A stretch of 64,000 nucleotides of DNA from Shigella phage vB_SboS_Gloob. Every line of letters begins with the position of its first letter. Position 1 is the stretch's first letter. The stretch lies in sequence record OL615011, one strand, 5' to 3'. This document shows positions 1 to 61,428 of this stretch, piece after piece. Position numbers and translations under genes: made by a program. The notes below the pieces were generated by a model that was not told where the DNA came from, searched no databases, and saw only the letters and a list, made by a program, of their open reading frames with translations.

Positions 1-159
1 ACCCTCTTGGCAGATCATGCCGATGCCATATTCCTCCCAGATTTTACGATTGTCAAAGAACTCCAGAGTCTGCTCCGGACTCAGCTCAATCGCTTGTTTG
101 GTGTGGCACACCTGTTTGGTGGCCTGCACCAGGCCAGCCATAAAATCATTGTGTAACAT
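1..159 (-). CDS. hypothetical protein, 3' end truncated by window edge
   Basis: Minus-strand ATG at 157-159 opens frame MLHNDFMAGLVQATKQVCH... that runs off the window start; lies directly downstream of gp41 in the same orientation. Confidence 0.35.
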   Translation of the reverse strand, partial: MLHNDFMAGLVQATKQVCHTKQAIELSPEQTLEFFDNRKIWEEYGIGMICQEG

Positions 160-4120: not shown

Positions 4121-4686
4121 TTACGTTCTCCGTAGAATTTAACGAACGGTGCCCAACCATCAAATGGATTGAGGAATTCGTAGTCCACTTCCATCTTATC
4201 AATGAAAGCCTCTATATCGTCCTCTATGATACCAGCGCGGTCGGCCTTTGAAATGCGGGTGATAGGACATTTCGTACTCAGCGCCCACTCATATTCCTGA
4301 GGGGTGCGCAGATCGCTCACGATATAATGTACATGAGGGTTCTGCTCCACCAGAGGAAGCTGGAAGCGCTTGAAGAATGCCAGGAACAGATCAGGCTGTA
4401 CGTAACGCAAGCCCGTATCGCTGCCGAGATGAAGCCAGATCTGCCGTGGGGTTAAGCCCTTGGGGTTATCAGGGTGGATGTAAGGAACGTCCTTCACGGC
4501 ATCCTCTACCTCCGCTGGCAGCCACGGGTAAATGTAGTTGGCGACCCGGCGCAGTTCATCTGAGAACGAAAGGCGCTGGATATCCATATCACCCTGTAGA
4601 TGGTGATAGCTGATGAGGGACTCCAAACAGAAGTCCTTACCGGAGCGCTTGCGCCCCGTAAAGAATTCAAGGTTCGGGTACATCAT
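4117..4686 (-). CDS. deoxynucleoside monophosphate kinase (T4 gp1 family)
   Basis: 189 aa; P-loop GRKRSGKD characteristic of T4-type dNMP kinases; start/stop overlaps with neighbours. Confidence 0.7.
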   Translation of the reverse strand: MMYPNLEFFTGRKRSGKDFCLESLISYHHLQGDMDIQRLSFSDELRRVANYIYPWLPAEVEDAVKDVPYIHPDNPKGLTPRQIWLHLGSDTGLRYVQPDLFLAFFKRFQLPLVEQNPHVHYIVSDLRTPQEYEWALSTKCPITRISKADRAGIIEDDIEAFIDKMEVDYEFLNPFDGWAPFVKFYGERK

Positions 4687-5729
4687 ACCACACCTTCCAG
4701 GAACTTAGGATCAACAATCTTGCGGTCAACCGGAGAATGGGTGAGCGCAATGTTCAAACCATGATCCTGAATCCGGTTCATGTTGATGAGCTTATCGTTC
4801 AGTTTGCAGTACAGGCAGTATGCCATTTGCATGATCAAGCCACGATCAGCATCATATTCCTTCAGGTGAGCAACCAAAGTTTCCCACGGGCTACCGATAT
4901 CACAATGATGAAGTACACCAGTGAACAGATTGCGGATATGGTTCTGGTTGGTCACGTTCTTGAAGTGGATCATGGAGTTGATGAACCCAGCTTCTACTTT
5001 GGTGTCCTTCGTGATCTTACCCAGCTGCTTCTGGCTGACTTCATTGTTGTAGTAATGAAGATTGTTGGAGAAGAGCTTGTACTGACCGACATCAACATCC
5101 AGCACCTGAGCAATCACTTCTTGAAGAATAGAGAACTCAATGAAGTTGATTGAACTCATACCCCACAGAACATCTTGCGAGCGGTTGATGACCGTCAGGT
5201 TCAGGCGACCTTCAACGATGGCGAACAACAGAGCCAGGTTACACACCATGTCTTTAGTCTTCGCTTCGCCACTCTCGCTGAACTTCGCCAGGCCAGCATC
5301 TGAATCCAGAGCCGGGTCATAGATGGTGAGGTACGCCTGGCGAGTGTTTGGGTTCTTGCGCAGACGGTTGATGACGCTATCCAGCTGGCCATGGGCGTAC
5401 AGACGCGGACCATAAGCGGCTCGCCATGTTACCCCATCATCCGAAAAGTTAGCAGCGCGAGGCAATACGCGTGACAGGAACTTTATGTCGTTGCGGCCTG
5501 ACAACACCCAGAAGGTCTCCCCAATAGCTGCGATAGCCGATGAGTTGCGACCTTCAACGGAGAGCCAGCGGTCACGAATATCGGAAACAGTGATCGTCAC
5601 ACCATCAAGGAAGCGGGTGCCGTCCGTGTTGATCTCCGCGTTACCAGGGTCCGACTCAATCCCGTATTCGCGGATAGCCAAGACAGCCTGTTTCAGCATG
5701 TCATTGTTGTTAATTGCTTTGATTTCCAT
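4683..5729 (-). CDS. thymidylate synthase-family pyrimidine hydroxymethylase (dUMP or dCMP hydroxymethylase candidate)
   Basis: 348 aa; TS-fold motifs ETFWVLSGRN (cf. ELLWFLKG), nucleophile Cys in VCNLALLF, NRSQDVLWG (cf. YQRSxDxxLG); lacks canonical ThyA PCHxxxQF context. Confidence 0.7.
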   Translation of the reverse strand: MEIKAINNNDMLKQAVLAIREYGIESDPGNAEINTDGTRFLDGVTITVSDIRDRWLSVEGRNSSAIAAIGETFWVLSGRNDIKFLSRVLPRAANFSDDGVTWRAAYGPRLYAHGQLDSVINRLRKNPNTRQAYLTIYDPALDSDAGLAKFSESGEAKTKDMVCNLALLFAIVEGRLNLTVINRSQDVLWGMSSINFIEFSILQEVIAQVLDVDVGQYKLFSNNLHYYNNEVSQKQLGKITKDTKVEAGFINSMIHFKNVTNQNHIRNLFTGVLHHCDIGSPWETLVAHLKEYDADRGLIMQMAYCLYCKLNDKLINMNRIQDHGLNIALTHSPVDRKIVDPKFLEGVV

Positions 5730-6403
5730 TAATCGATACTCCCAAAATCACGACAGAGGAATGCCATTACAGCCTGGTCTACTGTTAGACCGTGAGACTT
5801 CATCATACCTGCGGCCACCGTAGGGAACAAGCCTTTATGGCGCTGGCGATGGTCTTGAACACGCTCCCACTTCTCTACCACGAGGCTTTCATTGAAGTCC
5901 GCGCCGCCGTTGCGTGATTTAACACGGGCGATGCACGTTTCAAGAGGGGTGTCCATGAAGAGAACAACCAGTTCGCGCGGTGGGCGCGTCAGGCGGGGGA
6001 TCCAGGAACTCAGTAGAGTTGAAGGGATGATGCCTTCGAAGATCACATCGTATACCTGATATTCAGGTAGATCAGCGATGCTCAGGGCGAAGAGCATTTG
6101 TTCAGTGTCCTTCAGGGAATCAACTCCCTTGGACTTTGACTTGTCATATTTGCCGATACACACCACGTTGAATGACGGGCAGACCGTCAACATAATCTTG
6201 CCGTCATGTGTCACAACATACGCCTGAGGATCCCTCTCCGCCAGCTGAGACGGTACGGTGGATTTGCCGCTACCATTGGAGCCTTTGACGTAATAGAGTT
6301 GCCCTCGTGCTGGGTAGATCCCCTTTACGACGGGTGGTTTAATGAATGTGTGGACGGGGCGCTTGAGCAACCCCTTGAGGGAGTAGGACATAGACTGCTC
6401 CAA
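5729..6403 (-). CDS. P-loop kinase (candidate 5-hydroxymethyl-pyrimidine DNA or nucleotide kinase)
   Basis: 224 aa; Walker A GSNGSGKST; first gene of the overlapping operon. Confidence 0.45.
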   Translation of the reverse strand: MEQSMSYSLKGLLKRPVHTFIKPPVVKGIYPARGQLYYVKGSNGSGKSTVPSQLAERDPQAYVVTHDGKIMLTVCPSFNVVCIGKYDKSKSKGVDSLKDTEQMLFALSIADLPEYQVYDVIFEGIIPSTLLSSWIPRLTRPPRELVVLFMDTPLETCIARVKSRNGGADFNESLVVEKWERVQDHRQRHKGLFPTVAAGMMKSHGLTVDQAVMAFLCRDFGSID

Positions 6404-8629: not shown

Positions 8630-9334
8630 CTATTTCTTCTTATGCATCCGACGCGCATCTTTCCAAACAGACATCTGACTCTGTTTCTGGAAGCGAGCGG
8701 TGCGCATGAAGAGGACGATCTCCCAGTACTGTGGCTCGATCTCATAGAGCTGAGTGCGGAAGCGGTCGGCGCGGTACAGCTTCACACAGTGATTGTACAG
8801 CGGGTGGTTGGCGAACCGCTTCAGAGCATCCCAAGTGAGCTTCAGACGCGTCTTTGAGCGGTACGCCCGTTCGTTGCGCAACTTGATGAGATCTTCGAAC
8901 ACTAACAGCCTGAGCTTCGGTGGGAGGTAATGCATGTTCAGTCCCCAGAGGTATGTCACGCCCTTCTCTCCAAAGGTGATTCCATCACCCTTGGCAAAGT
9001 TGAAGAAGAACACCAGAGGATACATATCCCAGTACGGCAGTTCGTCCTTCGTCAGAGCATCGTATTTGAAATAGAACATGCGCCCGACCATATACCGCAC
9101 ACCCTGTACGGGACGCTTGTGATCAGCGAACGCCTGTTTCATATGGTTGGGAGTCAGGTTGGCGTCCTTAGACACACGCTCCATGAACCACACATGCGAA
9201 CGGCGGATGTTGCGCTTCGCCTCTGGACCGAAGTGTTGGCGGTACTTTCGGATGTATCGCTTGACGAGTTCAGGGGCGTCCATCTCGGCCGGAAACAGCA
9301 ACGGATCTTCTTCGCCAGCTGCATTCTTTGCCAT
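8630..9334 (-). CDS. conserved hypothetical protein
   Basis: 234 aa; basic termini; divergent from gp54-like gene. Confidence 0.5.
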   Translation of the reverse strand: MAKNAAGEEDPLLFPAEMDAPELVKRYIRKYRQHFGPEAKRNIRRSHVWFMERVSKDANLTPNHMKQAFADHKRPVQGVRYMVGRMFYFKYDALTKDELPYWDMYPLVFFFNFAKGDGITFGEKGVTYLWGLNMHYLPPKLRLLVFEDLIKLRNERAYRSKTRLKLTWDALKRFANHPLYNHCVKLYRADRFRTQLYEIEPQYWEIVLFMRTARFQKQSQMSVWKDARRMHKKK

Positions 9335-9344
9335 TTGTCAACTC

Positions 9345-9352
9345 CTATAAAT
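9345..9352 (+). promoter_or_regulatory. T4-type late promoter TATAAATA
   Basis: Exact TATAAATA 36 nt upstream of GTG start at 9388, with GGAG RBS between. Confidence 0.6.
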
Positions 9353-9387
9353 AACAACAGTTATCTTATTTAAGTGGAGTCCTCACC

Positions 9388-10332
9388 GTGGAAGACTATC
9401 GCAATTTTATCACACAGATGTTACAGCGGGGCTTGTCACGCAAGAACCGCTTCAGAGTGACCATCCCTCTGCCACCAGGGATCTTTGACTCCAATGCCAC
9501 TCTGGCTAATGACGGAAAGGCGTACAGCACCAATTCATCTTTCGGTGACTTGTTTAAGCAGTCAGCCCGTATTGTAAACGCTTTCTTTGGAGGGACAAAC
9601 CAGACTTCCCGTTCCCTTCAGATGATGTGTATGGTTGCCTCATTGCCAGGGGTTGGTATTGACACCACCCCAATGACGAACAACGGCAACCACATCAAGA
9701 TGCCGAACAACAAGTCCAACGTCGACCTCGACCTGTCATTCCTGTTGGCCAATGACTATTACGAGAAATCCGTAATGGACAAGTGGAAGAGTCTGATCTT
9801 TGATCCATACACTACCAAGATGGGCTATTACGAAGACTTCGTCACCGACATCTGCATTGAACAGCTTGATACTGAAGACCAGGTGGTTCACCGCGTCTAC
9901 ATCGTCGAGGCTCATCCGATCAACTTCAGTTCCATCGAGCTGGACAAAGGTGCCACCGATCAGTTCAACCAATACAACATCTCTTTCTCTTACAACAAAG
10001 TGCTCTCGGAGACAGAATATGAAACACGCAGCCTTTCCAGCGATTTTCTTCCTCTCGGTATTGCTGACGCTCTTACCAGTGGTGACTGGGAAACTGCGGC
10101 CTCAAAAGCCGGACAGCTTTATCGGAAAGTCAAAGAAGGAAACTTCACAGGAGAGGCTCTCCTGGCTTACAAACAGCTTGACCAACTTGTAAACAACCTG
10201 GCTGGGATCAGCCTACAGGACTTCGAGCGCATCTCGGTGGGTATCTCTCGTGACATCATGGGCAACGATAACCTGACGGCGGCGGAGAAGACAAACCTGT
10301 TGGGGATATTGCAAGACGTGATGGGCAAATAA
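9388..10332 (+). CDS. baseplate tail-tube initiator/cap protein (gp54/gp48-like)
   Basis: 314 aa, GTG start with GGAG RBS; N-terminal NRFRVTIP resembles tail tube/initiator family; late promoter upstream. Confidence 0.55.
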   Translation: MEDYRNFITQMLQRGLSRKNRFRVTIPLPPGIFDSNATLANDGKAYSTNSSFGDLFKQSARIVNAFFGGTNQTSRSLQMMCMVASLPGVGIDTTPMTNNGNHIKMPNNKSNVDLDLSFLLANDYYEKSVMDKWKSLIFDPYTTKMGYYEDFVTDICIEQLDTEDQVVHRVYIVEAHPINFSSIELDKGATDQFNQYNISFSYNKVLSETEYETRSLSSDFLPLGIADALTSGDWETAASKAGQLYRKVKEGNFTGEALLAYKQLDQLVNNLAGISLQDFERISVGISRDIMGNDNLTAAEKTNLLGILQDVMGK

Positions 10333-10358
10333 AAAGCCCTCCGAAGAGGGCTTGTTCA

Positions 10359-11405
10359 TTAGTTAGACTTGAGGTACTGCTCGAAGTCGTCGATGGAAGC
10401 CGTGTTCTTGGCGTCCGGTGTAGACTGAGACTGAATTTGAGTCTGAGTCTGTGACGGCGCGGCCTGCTGTTGTTTCAGGCTGTCTTGAGCAGTTGGCTGC
10501 TGGTTGACGGGCTGCTGGTGAGCAGTCTGGGTATTAGGGGCATGTGCCATCGTGGCCGCACCACCTTCAACCAGAGGCTGGTCATCAGGGATTGCCAGAA
10601 CTTTACGCAGACGCTTTTCCAGAGAGTCGTAGTCTTTGAAGTTAGCCGGATTGAAGAATTCAAACAGGCTGTGTTCACGAGACCACACGTCTTCCATGTA
10701 GGCTTCGTCGTCGCTCAGTGGAGCCGGAGCAGCCCAACTGACGTTGGAGAAGTTAGCCACCAGACCTTCCCAGTTCCCAAACTTCTTCTGCTCACCAAAG
10801 AGCTTCAGGTTCAGGTTGGCACCTTCCCACAGATCGAACGGATCGAATTTAGGGTCGGTTGGGAACTTAGGATTCTGCGCCTGATCCAGGATTTTCTTGA
10901 TGGCGTTACCAAACTCCAGCAGGAAGACCTTGCCGTTGTTTTCCGGTACGTTGACATCGTTGATCACCAGGATGTTGGCGTAGTATTTGGTGTCAGGCAG
11001 ACGTTTCTTCAGGATGTCCTTCAGCTTTTCGTCGTTCGTTTCTTTCTGCTGCGCCCACAGCGGACGGTCATGGTCGCGCACCGGATCGTCGTTGCCGAAC
11101 GTCTGAGGTGAGTTCTCAATGTACCAACCACCAGGTCCCTGGAACTGATGCTTCATGATCATGGCGCAAGGGGTCAGGATCTGATCTTTATCGATCGTTC
11201 CTTCTTCCTGTGCCTTGATGTCTACCAGTGGGACTGGCAGGAAGCGGATGGTGTTCTCGGAGATGCCATCTTTGTTCCAAGTCCATTTCCAGATGCGAGG
11301 ATCCTTCTGGAAGCCGGACTTCTGGCCTTGCTGTGCAAGACGCGCCTGCATTGCGTCAGCTTGCTGGCCACGGGACGCTTTCAGACGATCGAATAAATTA
11401 CCCAT
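10359..11405 (-). CDS. 32: single-stranded DNA-binding protein gp32
   Basis: 348 aa; N-terminal region with IRFLP motif as in T4 gp32; acidic Gln/Pro-rich C-terminal tail. Confidence 0.85.
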   Translation of the reverse strand: MGNLFDRLKASRGQQADAMQARLAQQGQKSGFQKDPRIWKWTWNKDGISENTIRFLPVPLVDIKAQEEGTIDKDQILTPCAMIMKHQFQGPGGWYIENSPQTFGNDDPVRDHDRPLWAQQKETNDEKLKDILKKRLPDTKYYANILVINDVNVPENNGKVFLLEFGNAIKKILDQAQNPKFPTDPKFDPFDLWEGANLNLKLFGEQKKFGNWEGLVANFSNVSWAAPAPLSDDEAYMEDVWSREHSLFEFFNPANFKDYDSLEKRLRKVLAIPDDQPLVEGGAATMAHAPNTQTAHQQPVNQQPTAQDSLKQQQAAPSQTQTQIQSQSTPDAKNTASIDDFEQYLKSN

Positions 11406-11469
11406 TTCTTAATTCCTCTGTTTCCGCCCCTCAGGGCTATTCTGTTACATGTATTTTCAGTTTTGTTAC

Positions 11470-11487
11470 AAGCGGGGTAATTATACC
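11470..11487 (-). promoter_or_regulatory. hairpin in gp32 5' leader (possible translational operator or upstream terminator)
   Basis: Palindrome CGGGGTA-ATTA-TACCCCG about 65 nt upstream of gp32 start. Confidence 0.3.
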
Positions 11488-11503
11488 CCGATACTACATT
11501 GAT

Positions 11504-11743
11504 TTAACCTTTAAGCACTTGATTTGCTGGGTCAATTTCAATAATGTCGAACACGTCCGAAAACGTCTTCTTGCCTTCCTCGTGGGTATGGTACTCAACG
11601 ACATATGAGCGACCATCAGGGGTAACGTAACGAATACGATCTGTCTGGTCGGCATGCTCGTTCAGGCTACCCACTCGCCAGCGCATTGCGCCAGGAAGAA
11701 ACTCGGCAGCTTTCATTGCGCTGTAAATTGATTCTTTGCTCAT
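11504..11743 (-). CDS. hypothetical protein
   Basis: 79 aa ORF. Confidence 0.4.
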   Translation of the reverse strand: MSKESIYSAMKAAEFLPGAMRWRVGSLNEHADQTDRIRYVTPDGRSYVVEYHTHEEGKKTFSDVFDIIEIDPANQVLKG

Positions 11744-11750
11744 AATAAAC

Positions 11751-11996
11751 CTACACTAATTTCTTGGACTTCAGCGTGTCTTTGATCAGGCGCGCATCGG
11801 AGCACTCAGCTGTCAGTCGCGACAACAACGGTGCTGTAATCATCTTTCTGACTTTGGTTTCGTCTATGTCGTTCTCTTCACAGACAGCAGCCAGAGTCTC
11901 AAGGATACTATCCTTGGTTTGGGCGGCGCGCAGTAGGACAATTTCAGAAAATGATTCTGGTGTCATCACAAGCGCTGGTAGTTTTTCGTCAGACAT
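11751..11996 (-). CDS. hypothetical protein
   Basis: 81 aa ORF. Confidence 0.4.
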   Translation of the reverse strand: MSDEKLPALVMTPESFSEIVLLRAAQTKDSILETLAAVCEENDIDETKVRKMITAPLLSRLTAECSDARLIKDTLKSKKLV

Positions 11997-12234
11997 CGAT
12001 CGTGTTCCCCTTGCCCGAACCCTTCTTTATCGTGCGCAAGACGTCCTTGAAGCCGTCTGGAGCCGATTGTGGTCCCTTCACCCCAGAGACAATCTTGGGA
12101 GCACCCACCACCATTTTAATCTCCCCTCCGCACTCAGTGCAGGGGTTGGATTCAGGCTCATGGCGATCTGCAATAGATTTACGCAGTGACATCGCGCTAC
12201 CACAGCCCTTGCATTGATAATCATACAGCGGCAT
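11989..12234 (-). CDS. zinc-ribbon protein
   Basis: 81 aa; CxxC (CKGCG) and CxxC (CTECGG) pairs. Confidence 0.5.
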   Translation of the reverse strand: MPLYDYQCKGCGSAMSLRKSIADRHEPESNPCTECGGEIKMVVGAPKIVSGVKGPQSAPDGFKDVLRTIKKGSGKGNTIDV

Positions 12235-12532
12235 GGAACACCCCCACAGTTGTCAGTACAAAACGAGCCATAATGATAACCAGCAACGCCACTGTAGAAA
12301 ACACGATACGCTTGATCATTTTGTCACGGATCTGAATGAACTGATATGAGAGGATAGCCTCGGCCTGTTGATCGGCACGAACGTTCGTGTCACGATGTGG
12401 TGACAGTGTGTAGAAGTTGATCTGGTACACATACGCATGAACCAGAGTGAAGAACGACTTCACCCAGACCAAGACAACCACTAACAACAAAGCGAACGTC
12501 AGGAAGTTCGCCAACAACCAGTAATCGACCAT
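12221..12532 (-). CDS. small membrane protein
   Basis: 103 aa; two long hydrophobic segments. Confidence 0.45.
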   Translation of the reverse strand: MVDYWLLANFLTFALLLVVVLVWVKSFFTLVHAYVYQINFYTLSPHRDTNVRADQQAEAILSYQFIQIRDKMIKRIVFSTVALLVIIMARFVLTTVGVFHAAV

Positions 12533-13122
12533 TATACACCTCTGTTGAAGTCTGGATTATTCTCAATGAAGCAAGAGCCACAAGCCATTATCGCAAACGA
12601 ATCCACGAGGTCATCGATTGGCTTGGGATCCTTAACTTCCAACATGTCCATTATACCGCGCATATTAACATTGAACAGCGACTCGAAGTGAGCGATCATG
12701 GCGTGTTTATCCGCGTTGCCCTTGTCGGTGAACATCTTCTTCACATGGGATGGCGTCACGATCTGGAAGTCGAAATTGTTACGGCGCAGGGCTTGCTTCA
12801 ACAGAGAGGTATTCTCTGCGGTCTGGCAGATGTTGTTGGAGTTCTTAGAGTTCCCCATGGCATACCCTTCAAGAGTGATCGCATCCGGCTTCTCGGTCAA
12901 CAGGACAGCCTCAGCCCATTTACAGATGTTATAGAAGCGCTCTTCTGGGGTCTCCCACTTCGGCTGCTTGAGGATCAGGATGTTCTGGCGAATTTGGGAG
13001 CAGTACTTCTCCACGGTGTAATACGCGTAGAAGTTCAGGTGATCAAAATCAAGAGGGTCTTTGTCGTCCCAGATACAGATGGACGGGCAACCGTAGGAGT
13101 AGTCGATTCCGCAATATTTCAT
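12532..13122 (-). CDS. RuvC-like Holliday junction resolvase
   Basis: 196 aa; N-terminal CGIDYSYG (RuvC GIDxG-like), later acidic residues in ITLEGYAMG and DDLVDSFAI. Confidence 0.5.
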   Translation of the reverse strand: MKYCGIDYSYGCPSICIWDDKDPLDFDHLNFYAYYTVEKYCSQIRQNILILKQPKWETPEERFYNICKWAEAVLLTEKPDAITLEGYAMGNSKNSNNICQTAENTSLLKQALRRNNFDFQIVTPSHVKKMFTDKGNADKHAMIAHFESLFNVNMRGIMDMLEVKDPKPIDDLVDSFAIMACGSCFIENNPDFNRGV

Positions 13123-13173
13123 GTAAATAGCCCATAACGAAGTTTCATTGGTGTATGGGCTATTTACGCCGGG

Positions 13174-13665
13174 TTAACGGGTGATGATTTTGCTATCAGG
13201 CAGGATCAGACCAGGGTGGTCCAGGTTCTTCTGCATCTGCTGGATGCTCTGCAGGATCACGGTAGTGTCAATGTGGCGTTTCACTTTGCGTGCCTCATCA
13301 CCATAAGAGACCTGCCCCTGAGGATCGATGTAATGAGCTGACACAACCTGCAGGTCATACCCGCATTTCATCAGGTACTTGGCGATGTTGCTGACTTCCA
13401 GCGACAGGGATTCACCGTCAACACCGATGTTGGCTGAGTAGACGATAGCGCCGTTTTCTGCTGCTGTCGGGTCAAACAACACCATACCAGCGATCGTCTG
13501 GATCAAAGGAACTCCCTCTGTATCGAAAGCCACCTGATCGAACGCACCGATGAACTCATCCGGCACTTTACCTTCGGCATCAGAAACTGTATGTTTCATC
13601 AGGTCCAGGACGTGTTGTTGTACTTCCTCAATCGGAGCACGTTCAACGGGTTTTTCGTTTTGCAT
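13174..13665 (-). CDS. hypothetical protein
   Basis: Likely start MQNEKPV; no recognised motif. Confidence 0.4.
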   Translation of the reverse strand: MQNEKPVERAPIEEVQQHVLDLMKHTVSDAEGKVPDEFIGAFDQVAFDTEGVPLIQTIAGMVLFDPTAAENGAIVYSANIGVDGESLSLEVSNIAKYLMKCGYDLQVVSAHYIDPQGQVSYGDEARKVKRHIDTTVILQSIQQMQKNLDHPGLILPDSKIITR

Positions 13666-14173
13666 TACTTTTCTCCAGTTCATAATCGCGCTCCACAACA
13701 TATTGGTAGACACGCATCTTAATATAGTCGGCACCACCTGCTGAAGACAGCACCCTCCATCCACTACTAAGGACATTCATCTTATATTGACCAACACCCT
13801 CTTGAAAATAACTTTTAATCTGTTCCAGCTTTCGCCCACGATGATAATACGAGATGAGTTCACCGATAACAATACAATCGGGATAATGTTTGTCAAGGGT
13901 ATCAATATTTCGGTGGACGTAGACAGGCAACACGTCTTCATCGTCGATAGGGCTGTAGTACGGGTCTACGATGACCACCTGTAGATCATACGACAATAAA
14001 TCCTTGACGCCCATACGACAGAACTTATAATCTTCGTGCTTCATTGCCACCTGGAGGATATTCTCTTTCTTGGCATAATCGGTCAGGAAGATAAAGAAGT
14101 CTGTGTTGGGATCGGGATATTGTATAGACAGTTCTTTGCCTATTTCACTAAAACAAAATCCGCGCATTTTCAT
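13643..14173 (-). CDS. hypothetical protein
   Basis: 176 aa ORF. Confidence 0.4.
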   Translation of the reverse strand: MKMRGFCFSEIGKELSIQYPDPNTDFFIFLTDYAKKENILQVAMKHEDYKFCRMGVKDLLSYDLQVVIVDPYYSPIDDEDVLPVYVHRNIDTLDKHYPDCIVIGELISYYHRGRKLEQIKSYFQEGVGQYKMNVLSSGWRVLSSAGGADYIKMRVYQYVVERDYELEKSNAKRKTR

Positions 14174-14216
14174 TCCTCGTTATAATTACTCTTACAATAT
14201 ACCGTGGAGATACATT

Positions 14217-15023
14217 ATGAATTTGCCATCATTGCCCAGAACAGAAAAGACATATAAAAGCGACTTTTGGCCTACTGTGATCAAATATCGCGCCTTTACT
14301 GCGGGGCAACAAACTTTATTACTTCAGGTGTCAGATCCGCAAACGCCGATTGAAGAACGCGCGGCCATGATGGAGAGCCTCTTCAGCGAGTGTGTAAATG
14401 CAGGTGCGCCTTTCAGCAAACTGCCAATCGGTGTTGTTGAGGAAGTGTTCATCCGTATGCGCATGATCGCCATCGGCGAATTGATGAAGATTCGCTACAA
14501 GTGCAATAATCAGGTTGAAGAAACGATCGATCTAGGGGATGGTCAAGAAAAGCGCCAGATGGTTCCCTGTGAGCAGGAACTGACTCTACCTATCCCGCTG
14601 AACAATGTAAAATGCATTGCTCAGGACGGCTTCCAGGAGACGTTTGACCTGCCGGGTGGCTATCACCTCAAGATGCGCCAACCTTCCTTCTCGGACGCTA
14701 CGGCGCTGTCTGATGCTGCAAGTGTTGAGATGATGCTGGCCACCTTTATCGACTGCCTGTACGATGATGACGGTCAGGTGTGGAAGGTTGAGAATCCTGA
14801 AGAAATCGGGATCACTCCGGAAGAGGCTACCGAGCGCCGCCGTGTGAAAGAAGCATTTGTTGAGTGGGTGAAGGATAACATCGAATCAGATGTCATCGAC
14901 AGCATTACGAAGAACTTCTTCCACAAAATACCGCGCATCCACTACAAGAGTTCAATCAAGTGTCCGAAGTGTGGTAAGGAACACAAGATCGAATTCAATA
15001 GCATTAATGAAATTTTCATCTAA
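14217..15023 (+). CDS. putative baseplate/virion protein with C-terminal zinc ribbon
   Basis: Start MNLPSLPRT with GGAG RBS; C-terminal CPKCG; immediately upstream of gp5 and gp25. Confidence 0.45.
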   Translation: MNLPSLPRTEKTYKSDFWPTVIKYRAFTAGQQTLLLQVSDPQTPIEERAAMMESLFSECVNAGAPFSKLPIGVVEEVFIRMRMIAIGELMKIRYKCNNQVEETIDLGDGQEKRQMVPCEQELTLPIPLNNVKCIAQDGFQETFDLPGGYHLKMRQPSFSDATALSDAASVEMMLATFIDCLYDDDGQVWKVENPEEIGITPEEATERRRVKEAFVEWVKDNIESDVIDSITKNFFHKIPRIHYKSSIKCPKCGKEHKIEFNSINEIFI

Positions 15024-15172
15024 TGTTTGAAACTGATTTACTATCCTACTTCGTGATGTGTGATGAATTGAAGTTACACGGCTATAGCATATTTGAAATC
15101 AACGAGTCGATGCCGTGGCATCTTGACTTGTTAACCGAAGCCCTCAAGGTCAGGTTGTCTAAGAAACAGTAA
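15023..15172 (+). CDS. small hypothetical protein (49 aa)
   Basis: ATG overlaps upstream stop (TAATG); MFETDLLSYFVMCDEL...; followed directly by terminator. Confidence 0.35.
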   Translation: MFETDLLSYFVMCDELKLHGYSIFEINESMPWHLDLLTEALKVRLSKKQ

Positions 15173-15196
15173 TCCCGCTTCGGCGGGATTTTTATT
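15172..15196 (+). terminator. rho-independent terminator
   Basis: ATCCCGC-TTCG-GCGGGAT hairpin followed by TTTTATT. Confidence 0.6.
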
Positions 15197-15491
15197 GGCT
15201 TAACTGTAAAACAGGTTAACGCGTGCTCTCTTTACCTGAAATTGTTATAATGGGCCTGTTCCTGAGTCATTTGTTGGGGATCGTCTATTTTGAATCAGAT
15301 TGTCAGTAAAATACCATTTTTCAAGGAGTGTTCTGAGGTGTACAGTTATTGCCTCGCTCTTATGCCTCCATGGCATTGGAATGGTGCTGCCTGCATAAGG
15401 CGGTGTGATGAGCGAAGCGAATAGGATCGAATAACAAATAAAATGAACGGAAGCAGAGCTTCCTATAGTATATAAGGCAAAATCCGCTGCG

Positions 15492-15499
15492 CATAAATA
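15492..15499 (+). promoter_or_regulatory. near-consensus late promoter CATAAATA upstream of gp5
   Basis: One mismatch to TATAAATA, 35 nt upstream of gp5 ATG. Confidence 0.3.
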
Positions 15500-15533
15500 C
15501 CTTCAAATCCTTGTTTGACAACCGGAATTCACT

Positions 15534-17141
15534 ATGTTAGACAATATGAGATGGTTTTATGGCACCGTTGAAGATGTCAACGATCCAGACCAAAACGGGC
15601 GCGTCGCCGTCCGCATCTATGGCGTCCACACTGATGACACCGTCCTCCTGCCTACGGATAAACTCCCATGGGCGAAGGTACTGATGCCTGCTTCAAACGC
15701 CTCCTCTGCTGGTTTAGGTTGGTCTCCAACGGGTATCATTCCCGGCACTGAGGTTATGGGGTTCGCCCTTGACGAAGCATACCAGAACCTGCGTATCACT
15801 TGGACTTGGCCTGGGGCAAATCCCACTGATGGGGCAGACACGAATCCACTGGCTCTCGGACAGGTCGTTCAATCGGTAGAACGTCAGGCGTACAACGCCG
15901 TCACTGACGTTCCTGTGAAACAAGAAGACGAACCACAACCAGATCCACAACCACCTGTTGGTGGGTATGATCCTGAAAAATGGATGACCATCGCTCGTGG
16001 TGAGCTGGGTGTCAAGGAGTACGCCGGAAAGTTCAACAACAACCCGCGCATTATAGAATATCACAAGACAACCTCCCTTGGTGCTTCTGAAGATGAAGTG
16101 TCGTGGTGTGCGGCGTTCGTGGGCTGGGTTATGTTGCAGGCTGGATACACGTCTACGCGCTCCGCTCTTGCCCGATCTTACCTTACATGGGGTAGTGCAC
16201 TGTCAGCACCACAATATGGTGCTATCGTAGTCTTCCGGCGCGGTAACAACCCTACATTTGGACACGTGGCGTTTGTACAGAAGTTCGATGCAAACTATGT
16301 CTGGTGTATCGGTGGCAACCAATCCGATTCAGTGAAGGTCAGCCGCTTCAGCCGTTCGTCAGTCCTGGGCTACCGCTGGCCTGGTCCTGCTAACACAGCC
16401 ACAGCCGCGCCTGCGCAGCAGAATGGTAAATGGTCAGAACCTATCCCAGATCGTACTCCAAAGGAACAACCGACTCCGGCTCCTACAGGGCGCGTCCAGG
16501 ATATTGATAACACGGGCGAAACTATGGTTCCGGCAGCGGGTGGCTCCAAGTACCCGTACAACAACGTCATGGCGTCCCGAGCAGGTCACATAATGGAGGT
16601 GGACGACACTCCTGGTGGTGAGCGTCTTCATTGGATGCACATGTCCGGCTCCTACAAACAGATGCTCCCGAACGGCGACGTCGTCAACAAGTCAGTGAAG
16701 GATCATTATGACCTGACCATGTTTGACAAGCGCTATTATGTCGGCGGGGACCACAACCTGACGGTCAAAGGAACTGAAGTTCAGCGCAAGACTGGTGAGG
16801 TCTATCACCTTCACTCCAACAACTACTCAAATGTGGTTGCTGGTACAGCGCTTATGAAGTTCAGCAACCTAGCAGAGATCCAAGCCCAGAATATCCTGCG
16901 CATCATCTGTGAGACTCTGGAAGTTGGTGGAACTCTCAAGGTGCCGAAGATCCTGGCCACTGAGATCATCGCCGACAAACTGTCGGTCGCTCAGACGATT
17001 GATGGCAACATCAAATATGCCGAGGGTGCAGGTCGTGCTTCTTCTCTGTCTGGTGCTACCCCTGCAACCCCATCGGGTCCAGGCGAGATAGATATTAAGG
17101 CAGAATTAAAAGACAATGGTGGTAATTTCGGCACCGAGTAA
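15534..17141 (+). CDS. 5: baseplate hub/cell-puncturing protein gp5 with CHAP/NlpC-P60-type peptidoglycan hydrolase domain
   Basis: 535 aa; N-terminal OB-fold WFYGTVEDVNDPDQNGRVAVRIYGVH as in T4 gp5; central domain with conserved Cys (WCAAFVGW) and His (FGHVAF) instead of a lysozyme domain. Confidence 0.75.
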   Translation: MLDNMRWFYGTVEDVNDPDQNGRVAVRIYGVHTDDTVLLPTDKLPWAKVLMPASNASSAGLGWSPTGIIPGTEVMGFALDEAYQNLRITWTWPGANPTDGADTNPLALGQVVQSVERQAYNAVTDVPVKQEDEPQPDPQPPVGGYDPEKWMTIARGELGVKEYAGKFNNNPRIIEYHKTTSLGASEDEVSWCAAFVGWVMLQAGYTSTRSALARSYLTWGSALSAPQYGAIVVFRRGNNPTFGHVAFVQKFDANYVWCIGGNQSDSVKVSRFSRSSVLGYRWPGPANTATAAPAQQNGKWSEPIPDRTPKEQPTPAPTGRVQDIDNTGETMVPAAGGSKYPYNNVMASRAGHIMEVDDTPGGERLHWMHMSGSYKQMLPNGDVVNKSVKDHYDLTMFDKRYYVGGDHNLTVKGTEVQRKTGEVYHLHSNNYSNVVAGTALMKFSNLAEIQAQNILRIICETLEVGGTLKVPKILATEIIADKLSVAQTIDGNIKYAEGAGRASSLSGATPATPSGPGEIDIKAELKDNGGNFGTE

Positions 17142-17160
17142 AGTCTTGGTATAGTTTAGT

Positions 17161-17190
17161 GGCAGAGGGGCAGCACTTCCCTCTGCCCCT
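17161..17190 (+). other. GC-rich hairpin between gp5 and gp25 (no U-tract)
   Basis: GCAGAGGGG-CAGCACTTC-CCCTCTGC. Confidence 0.3.
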
Positions 17191-17219
17191 TCTAGTCATC
17201 CTGAGAGGGGGTCACGCAA

Positions 17220-17600
17220 ATGAAAGAGTACAAAGATGTCGATCTGAAGTTCGGCATGCACCCGGTGACCAAAGATGTCACCATGAAATCAGGCGTATAC
17301 GCTGTCTTGCAATCTGTGCGGAATATCGTCATGTCTTCAGTCGGGGACTGGCCCACTTATCCTGGGATCGGTGCAGGGTTGTATAATCTCCTTGGAGAGA
17401 ACACCACCCCAACGATTCAGGTAGATGTGAAGAACAAAGTTGAAGATGCTATTGCTCTGTATGAACCGCGAGCCGAGGTAGAAGAAGTCACGGTGAGTCT
17501 GTCAGAGGATTACCATTCTCTGGGCGTGACCATCACATTCTATGTGGTCAACAATCCAGATCCAATAACAGACACCGTGTGGTTGAAAAGGACGAATTAG
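17220..17600 (+). CDS. 25: baseplate wedge protein gp25 (GpW/gp25 family)
   Basis: 126 aa; size and adjacency to gp5. Confidence 0.65.
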   Translation: MKEYKDVDLKFGMHPVTKDVTMKSGVYAVLQSVRNIVMSSVGDWPTYPGIGAGLYNLLGENTTPTIQVDVKNKVEDAIALYEPRAEVEEVTVSLSEDYHSLGVTITFYVVNNPDPITDTVWLKRTN

Positions 17601-17947
17601 AATTTCGTCCTGAATGCCGGAGCCACGACTAACATGAAGTGGCTCAATAACCTGAACATCTCTTTACCGTTGAAGTGGTAGAGGATAATCATCGGTCTGA
17701 CATCAACTACCGAACCATCCAGCTTCTTGTTCAACACAAATCTGGAACCGACACTAACCTTCCCACGCTCTTCGTCTCCTGGTTTGTCGTAGACCACGCA
17801 ACTGGTGGCATAACCGATCTGAGATCCATCCTCAGACCGCAATGGTAGCATGTGCCCTTCAGACATCAGATGATGCAGGTTCTGGTATAAACCTTTGTCT
17901 GGTATGGGCACTGCCAGCTGCATGCTCAGCTCTTTGTAATCTTGCAT
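17597..17947 (-). CDS. hypothetical protein
   Basis: 116 aa ORF convergent with gp25. Confidence 0.4.
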   Translation of the reverse strand: MQDYKELSMQLAVPIPDKGLYQNLHHLMSEGHMLPLRSEDGSQIGYATSCVVYDKPGDEERGKVSVGSRFVLNKKLDGSVVDVRPMIILYHFNGKEMFRLLSHFMLVVAPAFRTKF

Positions 17948-28221: not shown

Positions 28222-28310
28222 GATTTGTTTCCTGTATTGTGAACCATCTAGTATTTAGTGTTAATGGGTCCATGAGGTACTATATAGAATAATATAACTG
28301 GAGAACGAAA

Positions 28311-28916
28311 ATGAAAACTTTTCAAGACTTTTTGACCGAAGCCGCGCCGCCGATGTCTGTTCATATCAAGGCAGACAAGATCGGCAAGTCCACCGAAGAC
28401 AATATCGGTACTTTCTTGCGAGTTAGTGTTAGTGGCGACAAAGCTACTTTTGAAACCCCAGACGGGCGCAAGATAATCCTGACCAATGCCAAAGACATCA
28501 TTTCCGCATCTGGCCTGAAAGATGGCCAGTTTGCCAGTGCCCAGATGATTGACAAGGTTGATACTGACACCGCTGTCAAGTACAACAAATCAGGCAAATA
28601 TATTGACTTGTTGGATGTCAAATCAGGTATGGGCAATTCCTTTATCTCCATTGACGGTAACAAGCAATGGAAAGAAATGACCGAAGGTGGTTGGTATGCG
28701 TATAAAGGCGGTCGCCCCGGCTTGGCTCGTTATAAGATCGCCATGGTTATGGGACCTCATGCGGGTATGCCATCTCCTGGGGAAGATATTGAATACGAGT
28801 TACCGAATGGCGGCAAAGAACGCGGAACCGTCATGAAACTGAATGGTGCATCCAAGCTGATGGACGTCAAAAACGAAAAAGGTAAGAAAGTACAAGTCAG
28901 TATGTATGTGAAATAA
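28311..28916 (+). CDS. internal head protein with capsid targeting sequence (IP-like)
   Basis: N-terminus MKTFQDFLTEA closely matches T4 IP capsid targeting sequence MKTYQEFIAE (prohead-protease site after Glu). Confidence 0.65.
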   Translation: MKTFQDFLTEAAPPMSVHIKADKIGKSTEDNIGTFLRVSVSGDKATFETPDGRKIILTNAKDIISASGLKDGQFASAQMIDKVDTDTAVKYNKSGKYIDLLDVKSGMGNSFISIDGNKQWKEMTEGGWYAYKGGRPGLARYKIAMVMGPHAGMPSPGEDIEYELPNGGKERGTVMKLNGASKLMDVKNEKGKKVQVSMYVK

Positions 28917-28920
28917 CAAA

Positions 28921-28940
28921 AACCCCGCCGAAGCGGGGTT
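28921..28940. terminator. bidirectional terminator between convergent IP genes
   Basis: AACCCCGC-CGAA-GCGGGGTT flanked by A-run and T-run. Confidence 0.65.
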
Positions 28941-28944
28941 TCTT

Positions 28945-29427
28945 TTATGGCTTGACCAGAGTCATCTTGACGGTTTCACCCGTGTCGGTGTCTGTCAGGG
29001 TCATGACGTCTTGTGCGTTCACAGACTTCACTTTCCCTTGTCGCTTGTCGCCGTTGCGGTTGTAGTAGTCGATCAGTTCGCCTTTGGTTGGGCGGCCAAC
29101 ATCGGTGATGTCATACTGGCCGCGCTTCCCCAGCGCCCGGTGATCCACGCCTTCGGTCTTTAGATTCTTAACCCCCTCCAGGAATGCTTTGAGTAGATCG
29201 CCTGGGATAGGGGGCAGCTTCAGCTTCTCGGCCAATTCCTGTGGCTCACCTTTGATGGTCGAACCACTAGGGGACTTGTGCCCGTAGAACGTACCAGGAG
29301 TCTTGCCTTGATAGATTGAATAGCTCGGACCTTTGCTGTCGTACACAAGGGAACAAGTCCATTCAGTCTTGACTAAACGCCAACCAACTTGCTTGACCTC
29401 CGTTAGGAAGTCCTGGAACCCTTTCAT
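28945..29427 (-). CDS. internal head protein with capsid targeting sequence (IP-like paralogue)
   Basis: N-terminus MKGFQDFLTEV. Confidence 0.6.
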   Translation of the reverse strand: MKGFQDFLTEVKQVGWRLVKTEWTCSLVYDSKGPSYSIYQGKTPGTFYGHKSPSGSTIKGEPQELAEKLKLPPIPGDLLKAFLEGVKNLKTEGVDHRALGKRGQYDITDVGRPTKGELIDYYNRNGDKRQGKVKSVNAQDVMTLTDTDTGETVKMTLVKP

Positions 29428-29435
29428 ACATCCCC

Positions 29436-30005
29436 CTAGACAGGCTTAACGCCGAGGAACTTGGCAATGTCAGCAGCCAGGTTTTTACCCTTGCTGATAT
29501 CCTGCTCCTTGCCGTTGCAGGTGACGATCACATACGGGTCATCTTCACCACCGAAGTTCACGGTGATCGCCTTGCCGATGCCAGGGATGCCAGAGTATTC
29601 GAACTCAGTGCGACCACTCTTGCGGGACTTGCCAACACCCAGTGCTTTACCGATCATCTTGTCCATGTTCGCCAGTTCCTGAGCATAGGCTTCGGTCACC
29701 TGGCCTTTGTCGGCAGACTTGCCAAAGAAGAATTCGAAGCCGTCATGGACAGCAACGACTTCCTGACCTTGGGAGATACCGTGAGTCTGGTCTGGGGTCA
29801 GCTTCACCTTGATGTTGTTGCCGTTGGTTAACTCCAGGTTGTAGACATCCGCCTGATTGTCAGGAGTGATCTGGGTCACGGTAGCACCGGAGCACCACTG
29901 AGTGCCGTCAGCTTGCTTGGTGATGGATACGCTTTTGCCCTGGACACCAGCATGGGTCTGAGGCTGAGCAGCTTGTTCTTTAAAGTATTGAAGGAACGGT
30001 TTCAT
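29436..30005 (-). CDS. internal head protein with capsid targeting sequence (IP-like paralogue)
   Basis: N-terminus MKPFLQYFKEQA; late promoter immediately upstream. Confidence 0.55.
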   Translation of the reverse strand: MKPFLQYFKEQAAQPQTHAGVQGKSVSITKQADGTQWCSGATVTQITPDNQADVYNLELTNGNNIKVKLTPDQTHGISQGQEVVAVHDGFEFFFGKSADKGQVTEAYAQELANMDKMIGKALGVGKSRKSGRTEFEYSGIPGIGKAITVNFGGEDDPYVIVTCNGKEQDISKGKNLAADIAKFLGVKPV

Positions 30006-30030: not shown

Positions 30031-30038
30031 TATTTATA
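30031..30038 (-). promoter_or_regulatory. T4-type late promoter TATAAATA (minus strand)
   Basis: Plus-strand TATTTATA is TATAAATA on minus strand, about 25 nt upstream of IP gene start at 30005. Confidence 0.55.
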
Positions 30039-39968: not shown

Positions 39969-39976
39969 TATAAATA
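39969..39976 (+). promoter_or_regulatory. T4-type late promoter TATAAATA
   Basis: Exact TATAAATA 27 nt upstream of ATG at 40003, with AGAGGA RBS. Confidence 0.6.
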
Positions 39977-61337: not shown

Positions 61338-61394
61338 ATGGACTTTATTAAAGATAATAACCTTTATTAATCCTATTCGCTTCGCTCATAAAAC

Positions 61395-61428
61395 AAATAC
61401 TCGTTGTTCGTTAACACTCACAACTCGT
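61395..61428 (+). promoter_or_regulatory. sigma70-like promoter (TTGTTC, 18 nt spacer, TATAAT)
   Basis: Upstream of plus-strand ORF at 61554. Confidence 0.3.

Follow-up and report, generated by a model that had tools for sequence, protein, structure and literature searches.

Gene 32 of phage T4 lies about 25 kb from gp54, beside frd/td. In Shigella phage vB_SboS_Gloob (OL615011), of which a 64-kb stretch (the window) was analysed, gene 32 is found between baseplate genes and gp25 directly follows gp5. This raises the question of whether the locus belongs to a rearranged or misassembled T4-type genome, carries a baseplate module taken from a P2-like phage, or has the ordinary layout of another lineage. 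The last reading is very probably correct: the whole is best explained as a piece of an Agtrevirus genome with the standard family-wide layout, vertically inherited, with no local rearrangement or artefact and with alternating transcription units.

Gene content and order

Region 9388–17600 opens on the plus strand with a gp54-like baseplate tail-tube initiator of 314 aa with a GTG start (9388–10332; phrog_3629, E 3e-177), the best PDB sequence match of which is T4 gp54 (5iv5_W, E 0.007; phmmer against T4 gp54, E 3.5e-6). A gp2-like gene for a DNA end protector (8630–9334, minus strand; phrog_429, E 8e-68; tblastn with T4 gp2, E 1e-22) adjoins the region and points away from gp54. The minus-strand block which follows begins with the single-stranded DNA-binding protein gp32 (10359–11405; PF08804, E 1.5e-56; tblastn with T4 gp32, E 1e-21), a 79-aa ORF of unknown function (11504–11743; phrog_4100) and the late-transcription co-activator gp33 (11751–11996; PF16805, E 1.2e-18; phrog_254; T4 gp33, E 6.8e-6). 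The 79-aa ORF sits where T4 has gene 59, with no phmmer match to T4 gp59; the gp59 homologue of Ag3 is located elsewhere in the Ag3 genome. Since gp33 lies inside the block, the T4 33-(59)-32 neighborhood is retained. Upstream in the same block are a Zn-ribbon, FmdB-like small regulator (11989–12234; PF09723, E 1.3e-8; phrog_385; weak match to T4 39.2), a 103-aa protein annotated in relatives as a “membrane protein” and in Ag3 as having two transmembrane segments (12221–12532; phrog_4696), and a RuvC-like Holliday-junction resolvase (12532–13122; PF02075, 23.3 bits against a cutoff of 22.2; phrog_159, E 1.9e-53). Two proteins of unknown function and without a Pfam match complete it, one of 163 aa (13174–13665; phrog_3801, E 1.5e-74) and one of 176 aa (13643–14173; phrog_3957, E 5e-90), the latter being the first gene of the minus-strand unit.

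The plus strand then resumes with the 268-aa baseplate hub protein gp26 (14217–15023; PF12322, E 9.6e-46). Its ATG at 14217 is preceded by a GGAG ribosome-binding site, and the phrog_150 match starts exactly at that Met. The protein is annotated with 268 aa in SW16-7 and 267 aa in PhiSH19 and is truncated to 218 aa in Ag3 and SKML-39, where the annotated start is 50 codons too short. The adjoining 49-aa ORF (15023–15172; phrog_9633, E 3e-39) is 78–85% identical to its Kuttervirus counterpart and is weakly matched to phrog_634, “baseplate hub assembly catalyst” (E 4.4e-4); a comparison with T4 gp51 gave no direct match. It may represent the hub-assembly protein gp51 in a shortened form or as a remnant.

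The central spike gp5 (15534–17141) consists of an N-terminal OB domain (PF06714, Gp5_OB, E 3.5e-13), a CHAP peptidase domain at residues 187–262 (PF05257, E 8.6e-11) and a C-terminal β-helix. T4 gp5 structures match it at E 4e-32 over the N- and C-terminal stretches only (OB and β-helix), the CHAP domain replacing the T4 lysozyme domain; a non-T4 hydrolase domain in gp5 of ViI-like phages has already been published (PMC3121705, PMC3184105). The baseplate wedge/sheath-initiator protein gp25 (17220–17600; PF04965, E 6.6e-9; T4 gp25, E 1.9e-14) starts 78 nt past the gp5 stop codon, and the gene after it, of unknown function, lies on the minus strand and converges with gp25 (17597–17947).

All genes named in the first-pass annotation of this DNA were located, and its placing of gene 32 between baseplate genes holds, with gp54 on the upstream side and gp26, gp5 and gp25 beyond. 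The RuvC-like gene and the “small accessory genes” which it put between gp54 and gp5/gp25 were also found, the latter including gp33 and gp26, as was gp25 directly after gp5. Two of the T4 syntenies that it listed, 55-47-46 and 45-44-62-regA, are present in the window. From the third, 41-40-uvsX, the position stands (41-x-uvsX), but the middle ORF (1656–2036) has no similarity to T4 gp40 detectable by tblastn/phmmer-type sequence comparison. The T4-like micro-synteny within the block itself, 33-x-32 and the order 26 then 25, had been missed.

Classification and DNA modification genes

Over its entire length, region 9388–17600 shares 98.0% nucleotide identity with Salmonella phages SW16-7 and SP-9-14; the values are 97.9% for SKML-39 (ICTV Agtrevirus SKML39; 100% cover) and 96.8% for Shigella phage Ag3 (Agtrevirus AG3; 100% cover, 8.2 kb). 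Collinearity with SW16-7 and Ag3 extends across all of the window (94–98% identity), and the taxonomy lines of the closest records read Ackermannviridae; Aglimvirinae; Agtrevirus. ICTV practice sets the genus at roughly 70% or more genome-wide identity and the species at 95% or more; the values for SKML39 and AG3 fall within the genus Agtrevirus, as tested on 64 kb. The earlier suggestion of a distant T4 relative, for example Ackermannviridae-like, can thus be made specific, the window being Agtrevirus, and the genome comparison proposed as its check, run on the 64 kb, gave collinearity with Agtrevirus SW16-7 and Ag3 and not with T4. The Agtrevirus genomes SKML-39, SW16-7 and Ag3 match the window in gene content, order and orientation, and differ from it at strain level only, with a few indels and replaced segments elsewhere (e.g., 28234–29392).

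The gene order is the ViI-like one typical of the family, shared with these three phages and with Kuttervirus PhiSH19 of another subfamily. In a far relative, Vibrio phage D509, in which gp25 is 43% identical to that of the window, the blocks gp2|gp54|32..33..RuvC and 26-5-..-25 are each intact, with their relative order and orientation changed. A “remarkable degree of synteny” has been described among ViI, CBA120 and AG3 (PMC3184105), and scattered baseplate genes and a non-T4 gene order were published in 2011 for Ag3 and CBA120 (PMC3121705, PMC3184105). Gene 32 among baseplate genes is the published normal ViI-like layout, so the finding is an ordinary one; what is new is limited to a structured, conserved non-coding element that lies a short way upstream of gene 5. 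The hallmark of Ackermannviridae is a cluster of several tail-spike genes beside gp6 baseplate genes and vriC (PMC11721090); in Ag3 the tail-spike/gp6 cluster is at about 116–135 kb, beyond the part of the genome covered by the window. Terminase and major capsid genes likewise are absent from the 64 kb.

The modification genes had been anticipated to differ from those of T4, and they do. The window contains genes of the 5-hmdU hypermodification pathway, as befits Agtrevirus, in the form of a 5-hmdU DNA kinase (5729–6403; PF18748, E 3e-107) and a divergent thymidylate-synthase-like gene (4683–5729), and tblastn detected no homologue of T4 gp42, a-gt or b-gt in these 64 kb of a genome of about 158 kb. 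As judged from sequence, this gene set matches the thymidine hypermodification via 5-hmdU described for ViI (PMC5889632, PMC8989533); CBA120 was reported to be without hmC use (PMC3184105).

Relationship to P2 and T4 baseplate genes

The first-pass annotation also compared the gp5-gp25 pair with P2-type baseplate modules, and the adjacency itself bears this out. In P2, as here, a central spike gene is followed on the same strand by a member of the gp25/gpW family (PF04965), with V ending at 10943 and W starting at 10940. Horizontal acquisition of the pair from a P2-like phage as a V-W-J-I module would account for both the order and the shared Pfam family, yet it is very unlikely. P2 carries V-W-J-I-H-G in one operon, gpW being followed by gpJ (gp6-like), gpI and fiber genes, whereas in the window gp25 has no J- or I-like genes after it and is followed by a gene of the opposite orientation. 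The resemblance ends at V-W because about 85 kb separate gp6 from gp25 in Ag3 (gp6 at 132.9–134.7 kb, gp25 at 49.4–49.8 kb). Both proteins are T4-type rather than P2-type: gp5 is closest to T4-type proteins through its OB domain and β-helix, and gp25 is most similar to the gp25 proteins of T4, cyanophages and Vibrio phages. Moreover, T4 has 26 then 25 and the window 26-(x)-5-25, which places the gp5-gp25 pair inside a T4-like hub cluster. The T4-like cyanophages (Kyanoviridae, e.g., S-WAM1) are distant T4 relatives in which the core-gene order is also rearranged, and their gp25 is about 30–35% identical to that of the window. They retain another fragment of order, 25-6-7, with gp6 and gp7 directly after gp25, whereas in the window gp25 comes after gp5 and apart from gp6. 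This pattern would fit an old spike-25-6-7 order of which different lineages have kept different parts, and not an import from P2.

The vertically inherited Agtrevirus layout must also be weighed against a true Tevenvirinae phage with recent local rearrangements or insertions in this isolate. T4 homologues in the window comprise 2, 5, 25, 26, 54, 32, 33, 41, uvsX, 46, 47, 55, 44, 62, 45, regA, 61, nrdA/B and uvsW, and such a reading could draw on the retained micro-syntenies (41-x-uvsX, 33-x-32, 46-47-55 and regA-62-44-45, besides 26 before 25). The core genes are nevertheless not collinear with T4: for 20 shared genes, 8 of the 19 adjacencies are kept and 11 are broken (Spearman rho −0.22), and protein identity to T4 is only 24–45%. 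In T4, gp5 comes after gp53 and ahead of 5.1–5.4 and gp6–12, and 25-26 adjoin 51-27-28-29-48-54, whereas in the window the gene-32 block follows gp54 directly and leads straight into 26-5-25. Unlike T4, the window lacks gp59 between 33 and 32 and has the RuvC-like resolvase with no gp49 homologue (tblastn). The CHAP domain of gp5, the lack of tblastn matches to hmC-pathway genes in the window, the classification of the 97–98% identical records as Ackermannviridae, and a gene order common to other genera and another subfamily all stand against it; the divergence from T4 and the order shared across Ackermannviridae refute this reading, which we consider to have practically no chance of being right. 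The joining of T4-like genome pieces in the wrong order, as an assembly artefact or chimeric contig, was prompted only by the unusual order relative to T4, found no support, and is refuted, its probability being negligible, because 104 independently sequenced phage records carry at least 80% of region 9388–17600 in one aligned piece, all 64 kb are collinear with two complete genomes, and GC content is even along the window (0.47–0.54).

Transcription signals and a structured element upstream of gp5

As in T4, the presumed late genes share one strand and the presumed early genes lie opposite, and the late-promoter motif is TATAAATA-like. The T4-type motif TATAAATA lies on the plus strand at 9346–9353, 35 nt upstream of the gp54 start, and is found at the corresponding position in Ag3, SW16-7 and Kuttervirus PhiSH19. 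A late-promoter-like motif, TATAATTA (14181–14188, plus strand), is located 29 nt upstream of gp26 and is one base off TATAAATA; the aligned PhiSH19 position is a perfect TATAAATA. The third, CATAAATA (15492–15499, plus strand), is 35 nt upstream of gp5 and is invariant across four genera while its flanks vary; a late-promoter candidate ahead of the gp5 homologue of Ag3, orf084, was proposed previously (PMC3121705). An extended −10 promoter-like sequence, TGTTATAAT, is kept across genera at 15243–15251 (plus strand). The heptamer ATAAATA has only four copies in the 64 kb, each correctly oriented and 25–36 nt ahead of a start codon, and three in the 19-kb PhiSH19 locus, ahead of gp54, gp26 and gp5. 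A count of four is not by itself above chance (2.8 expected in the window), so the argument for late promoters rests on placement and cross-genus conservation.

Three terminator or terminator-like hairpins were located. A bidirectional intrinsic terminator (10334–10353), annotated on both strands in Ag3, separates the convergent gp54 and gp32; a second terminator hairpin (15171–15190) follows the gp26 unit, its stem varying by compensatory changes across genera; and the terminator-like GGAAGC-AGA-GCTTCC (15449–15463, plus strand) is found downstream of the structured element, with a compensatory GGATGC/GCATCC counterpart in Taipeivirus.

From motif position and T4 biology we surmise that the region comprises three transcription units of alternating polarity. 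On the plus strand, late unit 1 would consist of gp54 alone, late unit 2 of gp26 and the 49-aa ORF, and late unit 3 of gp5 and gp25, with TATAAATA, TATAATTA and CATAAATA preceding the start codons by 29–35 nt. Recognition of the late motifs presumably falls to gp55 and gp33 of the phage itself, acting with the gp45 clamp; the window encodes all three proteins. A minus-strand unit, probably early or middle, would start with the 176-aa ORF, include RuvC and gp33, end with gp32, and serve replication, recombination and late transcription. Two of the hairpins would serve as operon boundaries, one at the junction of gp54 with gp32 and one where the gp26 unit ends. No transcription study of any Ackermannviridae member was found in the literature, and a 2024 review (PMC11721090) makes no mention of transcription.

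The structured element (15362–15423, plus strand) lies in the 360-bp gap before gp5 and has four helices. Stems S1 (15362–66 with 15372–76) and S2 (15368–71 with 15381–84) form an H-type pseudoknot, followed by hairpin P3 (15386–92 with 15398–404) and a small helix, P4 (15409–13 with 15417–21). In the alignment 98.9% of cells are paired and five pairs show compensatory changes; none of 500 shuffles was as good, and slid controls were 25–49% paired. No gathering-score match to Rfam 15 was obtained anywhere in the window, and at E up to 10 only look-alikes of terminator hairpins were returned for 15170–15540. The element was found in no bacterial genome, and matches to it are confined to Ackermannviridae-sized contigs. 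The element is specific to Ackermannviridae and absent from Rfam, and a paralogue of it lies upstream of gp6.

Placement of the window and gene content

A megablast search with 9388–17600 against 50,697 phage records returned 273 matches, 104 of which align at least 80% of the query in one place. The best of these are the Salmonella phages SW16-7 and SP-9-14, each aligned in a single piece over 100% of the query at 98.0% identity, with further top matches to SKML-39 (97.9%), P46FS4 (97.3%), and the Shigella phages ChubbyThor (97.0%) and Ag3 (96.8%). The records of the close relatives, the Agtrevirus references, give the lineage as Ackermannviridae; Aglimvirinae; Agtrevirus. The 64-kb window aligns in order throughout with SW16-7 and Ag3 at 94–98%, with the exception of a few short replaced segments, and its GC content is even (0.47–0.54). 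On the basis of the identities, taxonomy, collinearity, and even GC the window is, by sequence, part of an Agtrevirus genome. The first-pass annotation, which had suggested a distant T4 relative, “for example Ackermannviridae-like,” was exactly right, the region being 96.8–98.0% identical to Agtrevirus phages. Neither tRNA genes nor Rfam families at gathering score were found in the 64-kb window. This placement is useful for reading every other finding from the window, and leads one to expect genes for thymidine hypermodification, tail spikes rather than fibers, and misleading RefSeq names.

The region is preceded by a gene for a gp2-like DNA end protector (8630–9334, minus strand; phrog_429, E = 8e-68; T4 gp2, E = 1e-22) and opens with a plus-strand gp54-like gene (9388–10332; phrog_3629, E = 3e-177; T4 gp54 by phmmer, E = 3.5e-6; best PDB match T4 gp54, 5iv5_W, E = 0.007). 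On the minus strand follow gp32 (10359–11405; PF08804, E = 1.5e-56), a 79-residue ORF with no assigned role (11504–11743; phrog_4100), gp33 (11751–11996; PF16805, E = 1.2e-18), an FmdB-like Zn-ribbon protein (11989–12234; PF09723, E = 1.3e-8), a membrane protein (12221–12532; phrog_4696 and the Ag3 annotation), a RuvC-like resolvase (12532–13122; PF02075 above cutoff; phrog_159, E = 1.9e-53), and two ORFs without assigned role (13174–13665, phrog_3801; 13643–14173, phrog_3957). The plus strand then carries the gp26 hub gene (14217–15023; PF12322, E = 9.6e-46), a 49-residue ORF (15023–15172), a 360-bp gap with no annotated gene (15173–15533), gp5 (15534–17141), and gp25 (17220–17600; PF04965; T4 gp25, E = 1.9e-14). 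This map bears out in every particular the original observation that gene 32, a RuvC-like gene, and small genes lie between the gp54-like gene and gp5/gp25, with gp25 directly after gp5.

The most likely start of gp26 is the ATG at 14217, which has a GGAG ribosome-binding site, yields 268 residues, and is where the Pfam and PHROG matches begin; the annotated lengths are 268 residues in SW16-7 and 267 in the Kuttervirus PhiSH19, whereas Ag3 and SKML-39 are 50 codons shorter, starting from 14367. A PDB sequence search with gp26 gave no match. The 49-residue ORF is 78–85% identical in Kuttervirus, although PhiSH19 has no annotation for it. It weakly matches (E = 4.4e-4) the C-terminal portion of a gp51-type PHROG named “baseplate hub assembly catalyst” and has no direct match to T4 gp51; its assignment as gp51-type is tentative and, if true, would mean that the T4 26/51 neighborhood is retained in reduced form. 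Gp5 possesses Gp5_OB and CHAP domains and matches T4 gp5 structures (E = 4e-32) in the OB and β-helix parts only; the CHAP peptidase domain, at approximately 16092–16319, takes the place of the lysozyme domain of T4 gp5. A central hydrolase unlike T4 lysozyme has already been described for gp5 of CBA120 (Kutter et al. 2011, PMC3184105), and the CHAP domain was annotated by the authors of PhiSH19; database names nevertheless still read “tail lysozyme.” A further misnomer concerns 5729–6403 (minus strand), a 5-hmdU DNA kinase gene (PF18748, E = 3e-107, full-length match) labelled “terminase small subunit” in RefSeq Ag3 and SKML-39 and in PHROG 800; the true gp16-like small terminase of Ag3 adjoins gp17, outside the range of the window.

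Comparison with T4, P2, and other relatives

The annotated T4 record was compared with the window, and T4 proteins were searched against it. In T4, genes 3-2-4 (minus) face 53-5-5.1...6-7-8 (plus), uvsY-25-26 (minus) face 51-27-28-29-48-54 (plus), and 32-segG-59-33-dsbA-rnh is located some 25 kb beyond. T4 and the window have 20 genes in common; of 19 adjacencies, 8 survive (41-uvsX, 32-33, nrdB-nrdA, 46-47-55, and regA-62-44-45) and gene positions have a rank correlation of −0.22, in agreement with the departure from T4 order claimed at first. There is no global T4 collinearity, and the local blocks originally listed are real: 55-47-46 and 45-44-62-regA are both present. The block given as 41-40-uvsX stands positionally, as 41-x-uvsX, but the intervening ORF (1656–2036) shows no similarity to T4 gp40 by tblastn, phmmer, Pfam, or PHROGs. 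The “small accessory genes” are present and in fact include gp33, identified by PF16805, and therefore the T4 33-(59)-32 neighborhood is preserved. The 79-residue ORF occupies the spot between gp33 and gp32 where gene 59 would be; similarity to T4 gp59 was sought and none was found, and in Ag3 gp59 lies beside the gp48-gp53 cluster. In T4, gene 25 is transcribed after 26; the order found here, 26-49aa-5-25, allows the block to be read as the T4 26-25 unit enclosing gene 5. The gene 32 leader (11406–11503) was inspected for a T4-like operator pseudoknot and for likeness to the structured element before gp5, neither being evident.

The same gene order is found in PhiSH19, which belongs to another subfamily (Cvivirinae). 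A distant relative, Vibrio phage D509 (OZ195733.1, 37352–55687; no family assignment in the record), whose gp25 is 43% identical, retains both blocks (26-x-5-...-25 and RuvC...33-x-(HNH)-32 | 54 | 2), although their relative order and orientation differ. Its gp5 is much shorter (296 residues), and a hypothetical gene and a PAAR gene separate gp5 from gp25; the window has no PAAR gene there. The likeness of gp5-gp25 to P2-type baseplate modules, also proposed in the first-pass annotation, holds for the spike-then-gp25 adjacency. The analogy is restricted to that one adjacency because gp6 of Ag3 lies approximately 85 kb from gp25 (gp48-gp53 form a third cluster), against V-W-J-I-H-G in P2. Cyanophage S-WAM1 has 25-6-7. 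Import of gp5-gp25 from P2 is less likely, as both genes are T4-type by sequence; rather, T4-related lineages may keep different fragments of an older spike-25-6-7 order.

The gene order is thus not new. It is the known Ackermannviridae architecture, published for Ag3 (PMC3121705) and for CBA120 (PMC3184105), the latter paper reporting a “remarkable degree of synteny” among ViI, AG3, and CBA120 (Kutter et al. 2011), and our result re-derives from raw sequence what the papers of 2010–2011 gave for Ag3, ViI, and CBA120. The sole item worth carrying forward is the conserved structured element before gp5.

Probable late promoters and transcription units

The motif ATAAATA occurs four times in the 64 kb, where 2.8 copies are expected by chance; since the count is not above chance, the argument rests upon placement and conservation. 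All four precede a start codon by 25–36 nt and are correctly oriented: at 9346–9353 (plus; ATAAATA at 9347) before gp54, at 15492–15499 (plus; ATAAATA at 15493) before gp5, at 30031–30038 (minus; ATAAATA at 30031–30037) before the ORF at 29436–30005, and at 39969–39976 (plus; ATAAATA at 39970) before a plus-strand ORF starting near 40012. Their form is (T/C)ATAAATA, with one variant, TATAATTA, at 14181–14188 (plus) before gp26. The 19-kb PhiSH19 locus has ATAAATA three times, before gp54, gp26, and gp5, and in four genera gp5 is preceded by an unchanged CATAAATA between diverging flanks. This is clean comparative evidence, each plus-strand baseplate unit having a T4-type motif conserved across genera. 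Anany et al. proposed TATAAATA-like late promoters for Ag3, one of them before the gp5 gene (PMC3121705); in the CBA120 paper of 2011 the late-promoter sequence of the family was given as not yet identified (PMC3184105).

Gp55 is encoded at 38699–39427 (phrog_234, E = 3.6e-52), and gp33 and gp45 are likewise encoded in the window. Terminator hairpins are found at the gp54/gp32 junction (10334–10353) and at the end of the gp26 unit (15171–15190), and the strand switches in the region coincide with such hairpins and motifs. The plus-strand baseplate genes would therefore, we surmise, constitute late units expressed from T4-type late promoters, probably alternating with an early or middle unit on the minus strand that comprises gp32, gp33, and the resolvase. 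A literature search for transcriptome or sRNA studies of Ackermannviridae found nothing relevant.

A terminator-like hairpin resembling that at 15165–15196 also follows a 201-residue ORF (28311–28916, plus strand), which lies on the opposite strand within a segment (28234–29392) missing from SW16-7 and Ag3. The ORF has no Pfam or PHROG match, and its tblastn hits are confined to 14 phage records (FEC14 and MK-13 at 99%; S117, 3HA11, and some Klebsiella Ackermannviridae at 74–81%). It is a sporadic accessory gene.

A proposed structured element upstream of gp5

The 360-bp gap before gp5 is left unannotated by most records, yet conserved: 15346–15405 has 83% identity to Kuttervirus, on a par with the best-conserved coding segments, whereas other intergenic stretches show 43–62%. 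Modules from this gap recur elsewhere, always oriented like their downstream gene. Module B (15363–15405) has a second copy upstream of gp6 in Ag3; module C, ATGAGCGAAGCGAATAGGAT (15408–15427), is repeated at 61370–61389 (minus) upstream of gp45; and module A, AGTTGTGAGTGTTAACGAACAACGA, is common to the upstream regions of gp45 and gp6. Element-related copies span 61370–61425 (minus) in the window and 29787–29909 (minus) in an Ag3 locus (L007). The copy upstream of gp6 is a paralogue; the relative upstream of gp45 lacks the pseudoknot.

An alignment of ten distinct sequences (Agtrevirus/Limestonevirus-like, Kuttervirus, and Taipeivirus, with both paralogues) supports a predicted core of approximately 60 nt (15362–15423). 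It would consist of an H-type pseudoknot, formed by S1 (15362–15366 with 15372–15376; AUGCC/GGCAU) and S2 (15368–15371 with 15381–15384; CCAU/AUGG), a 7-bp hairpin P3 (15386–15392 with 15398–15404), and a small helix P4 (15409–15413 with 15417–15421). Of the alignment cells 98.9% are paired and five pairs are changed on both sides, these changes stemming from no more than about three lineages and a single split between paralogues, with the structure derived from the same sequences. None of 500 shuffles matched the observed pairing or covariation score, and sliding the partners by 1–3 columns left 25–49% pairing only. Invariant G-U pairs assign the structure to the sense strand of gp5. The fold of the single sequence is not significant (z = −1.29), and the case rests on covariation. 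Neither at gathering score nor at a permissive E-value did the element match Rfam. A small peptide would be an alternative source of conservation, each genus having an ORF of 20–21 codons, but coding is an improbable explanation since the reading frame is not maintained: orthologues differ by 1–2-nt indels, the frames diverge after codon 11, and the gp6 paralogue lacks that ATG.

The copies upstream of gp5 agree in layout. A site resembling an extended −10 promoter, TGTTATAAT (15243–15251), and a second conserved stretch lie upstream of the core. A variable spacer separates the −10 site from the element, downstream of which come an A-rich tail, a hairpin (15449–15463) with compensatory changes in Taipeivirus, and finally the late promoter and then gp5 itself. 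Such an arrangement points to a short early transcript, or a leader, that would end before the late promoter. The element, which appears not to have been described earlier, is possibly a real phage-encoded structured RNA, either a small RNA or a cis-acting element of leader or antitermination type, although we hold this reading with somewhat less than even confidence; if true, this would give Ackermannviridae their first described regulatory RNA.

The same tentative reading has the element restricted to enterobacterial Ackermannviridae (Agtrevirus/Limestonevirus, Kuttervirus, and Taipeivirus). A 23-base pattern for module B, used because a 15-base pattern was too loose and gave mostly chance matches, found no match in 185,579 bacterial and archaeal genomes. 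In IMG/VR it matched 25 loci, with at most two copies per genome: 24 in contigs of 152–162 kb and one in a 9.8-kb fragment having the same gp5-upstream sequence as one of the 24 contigs.
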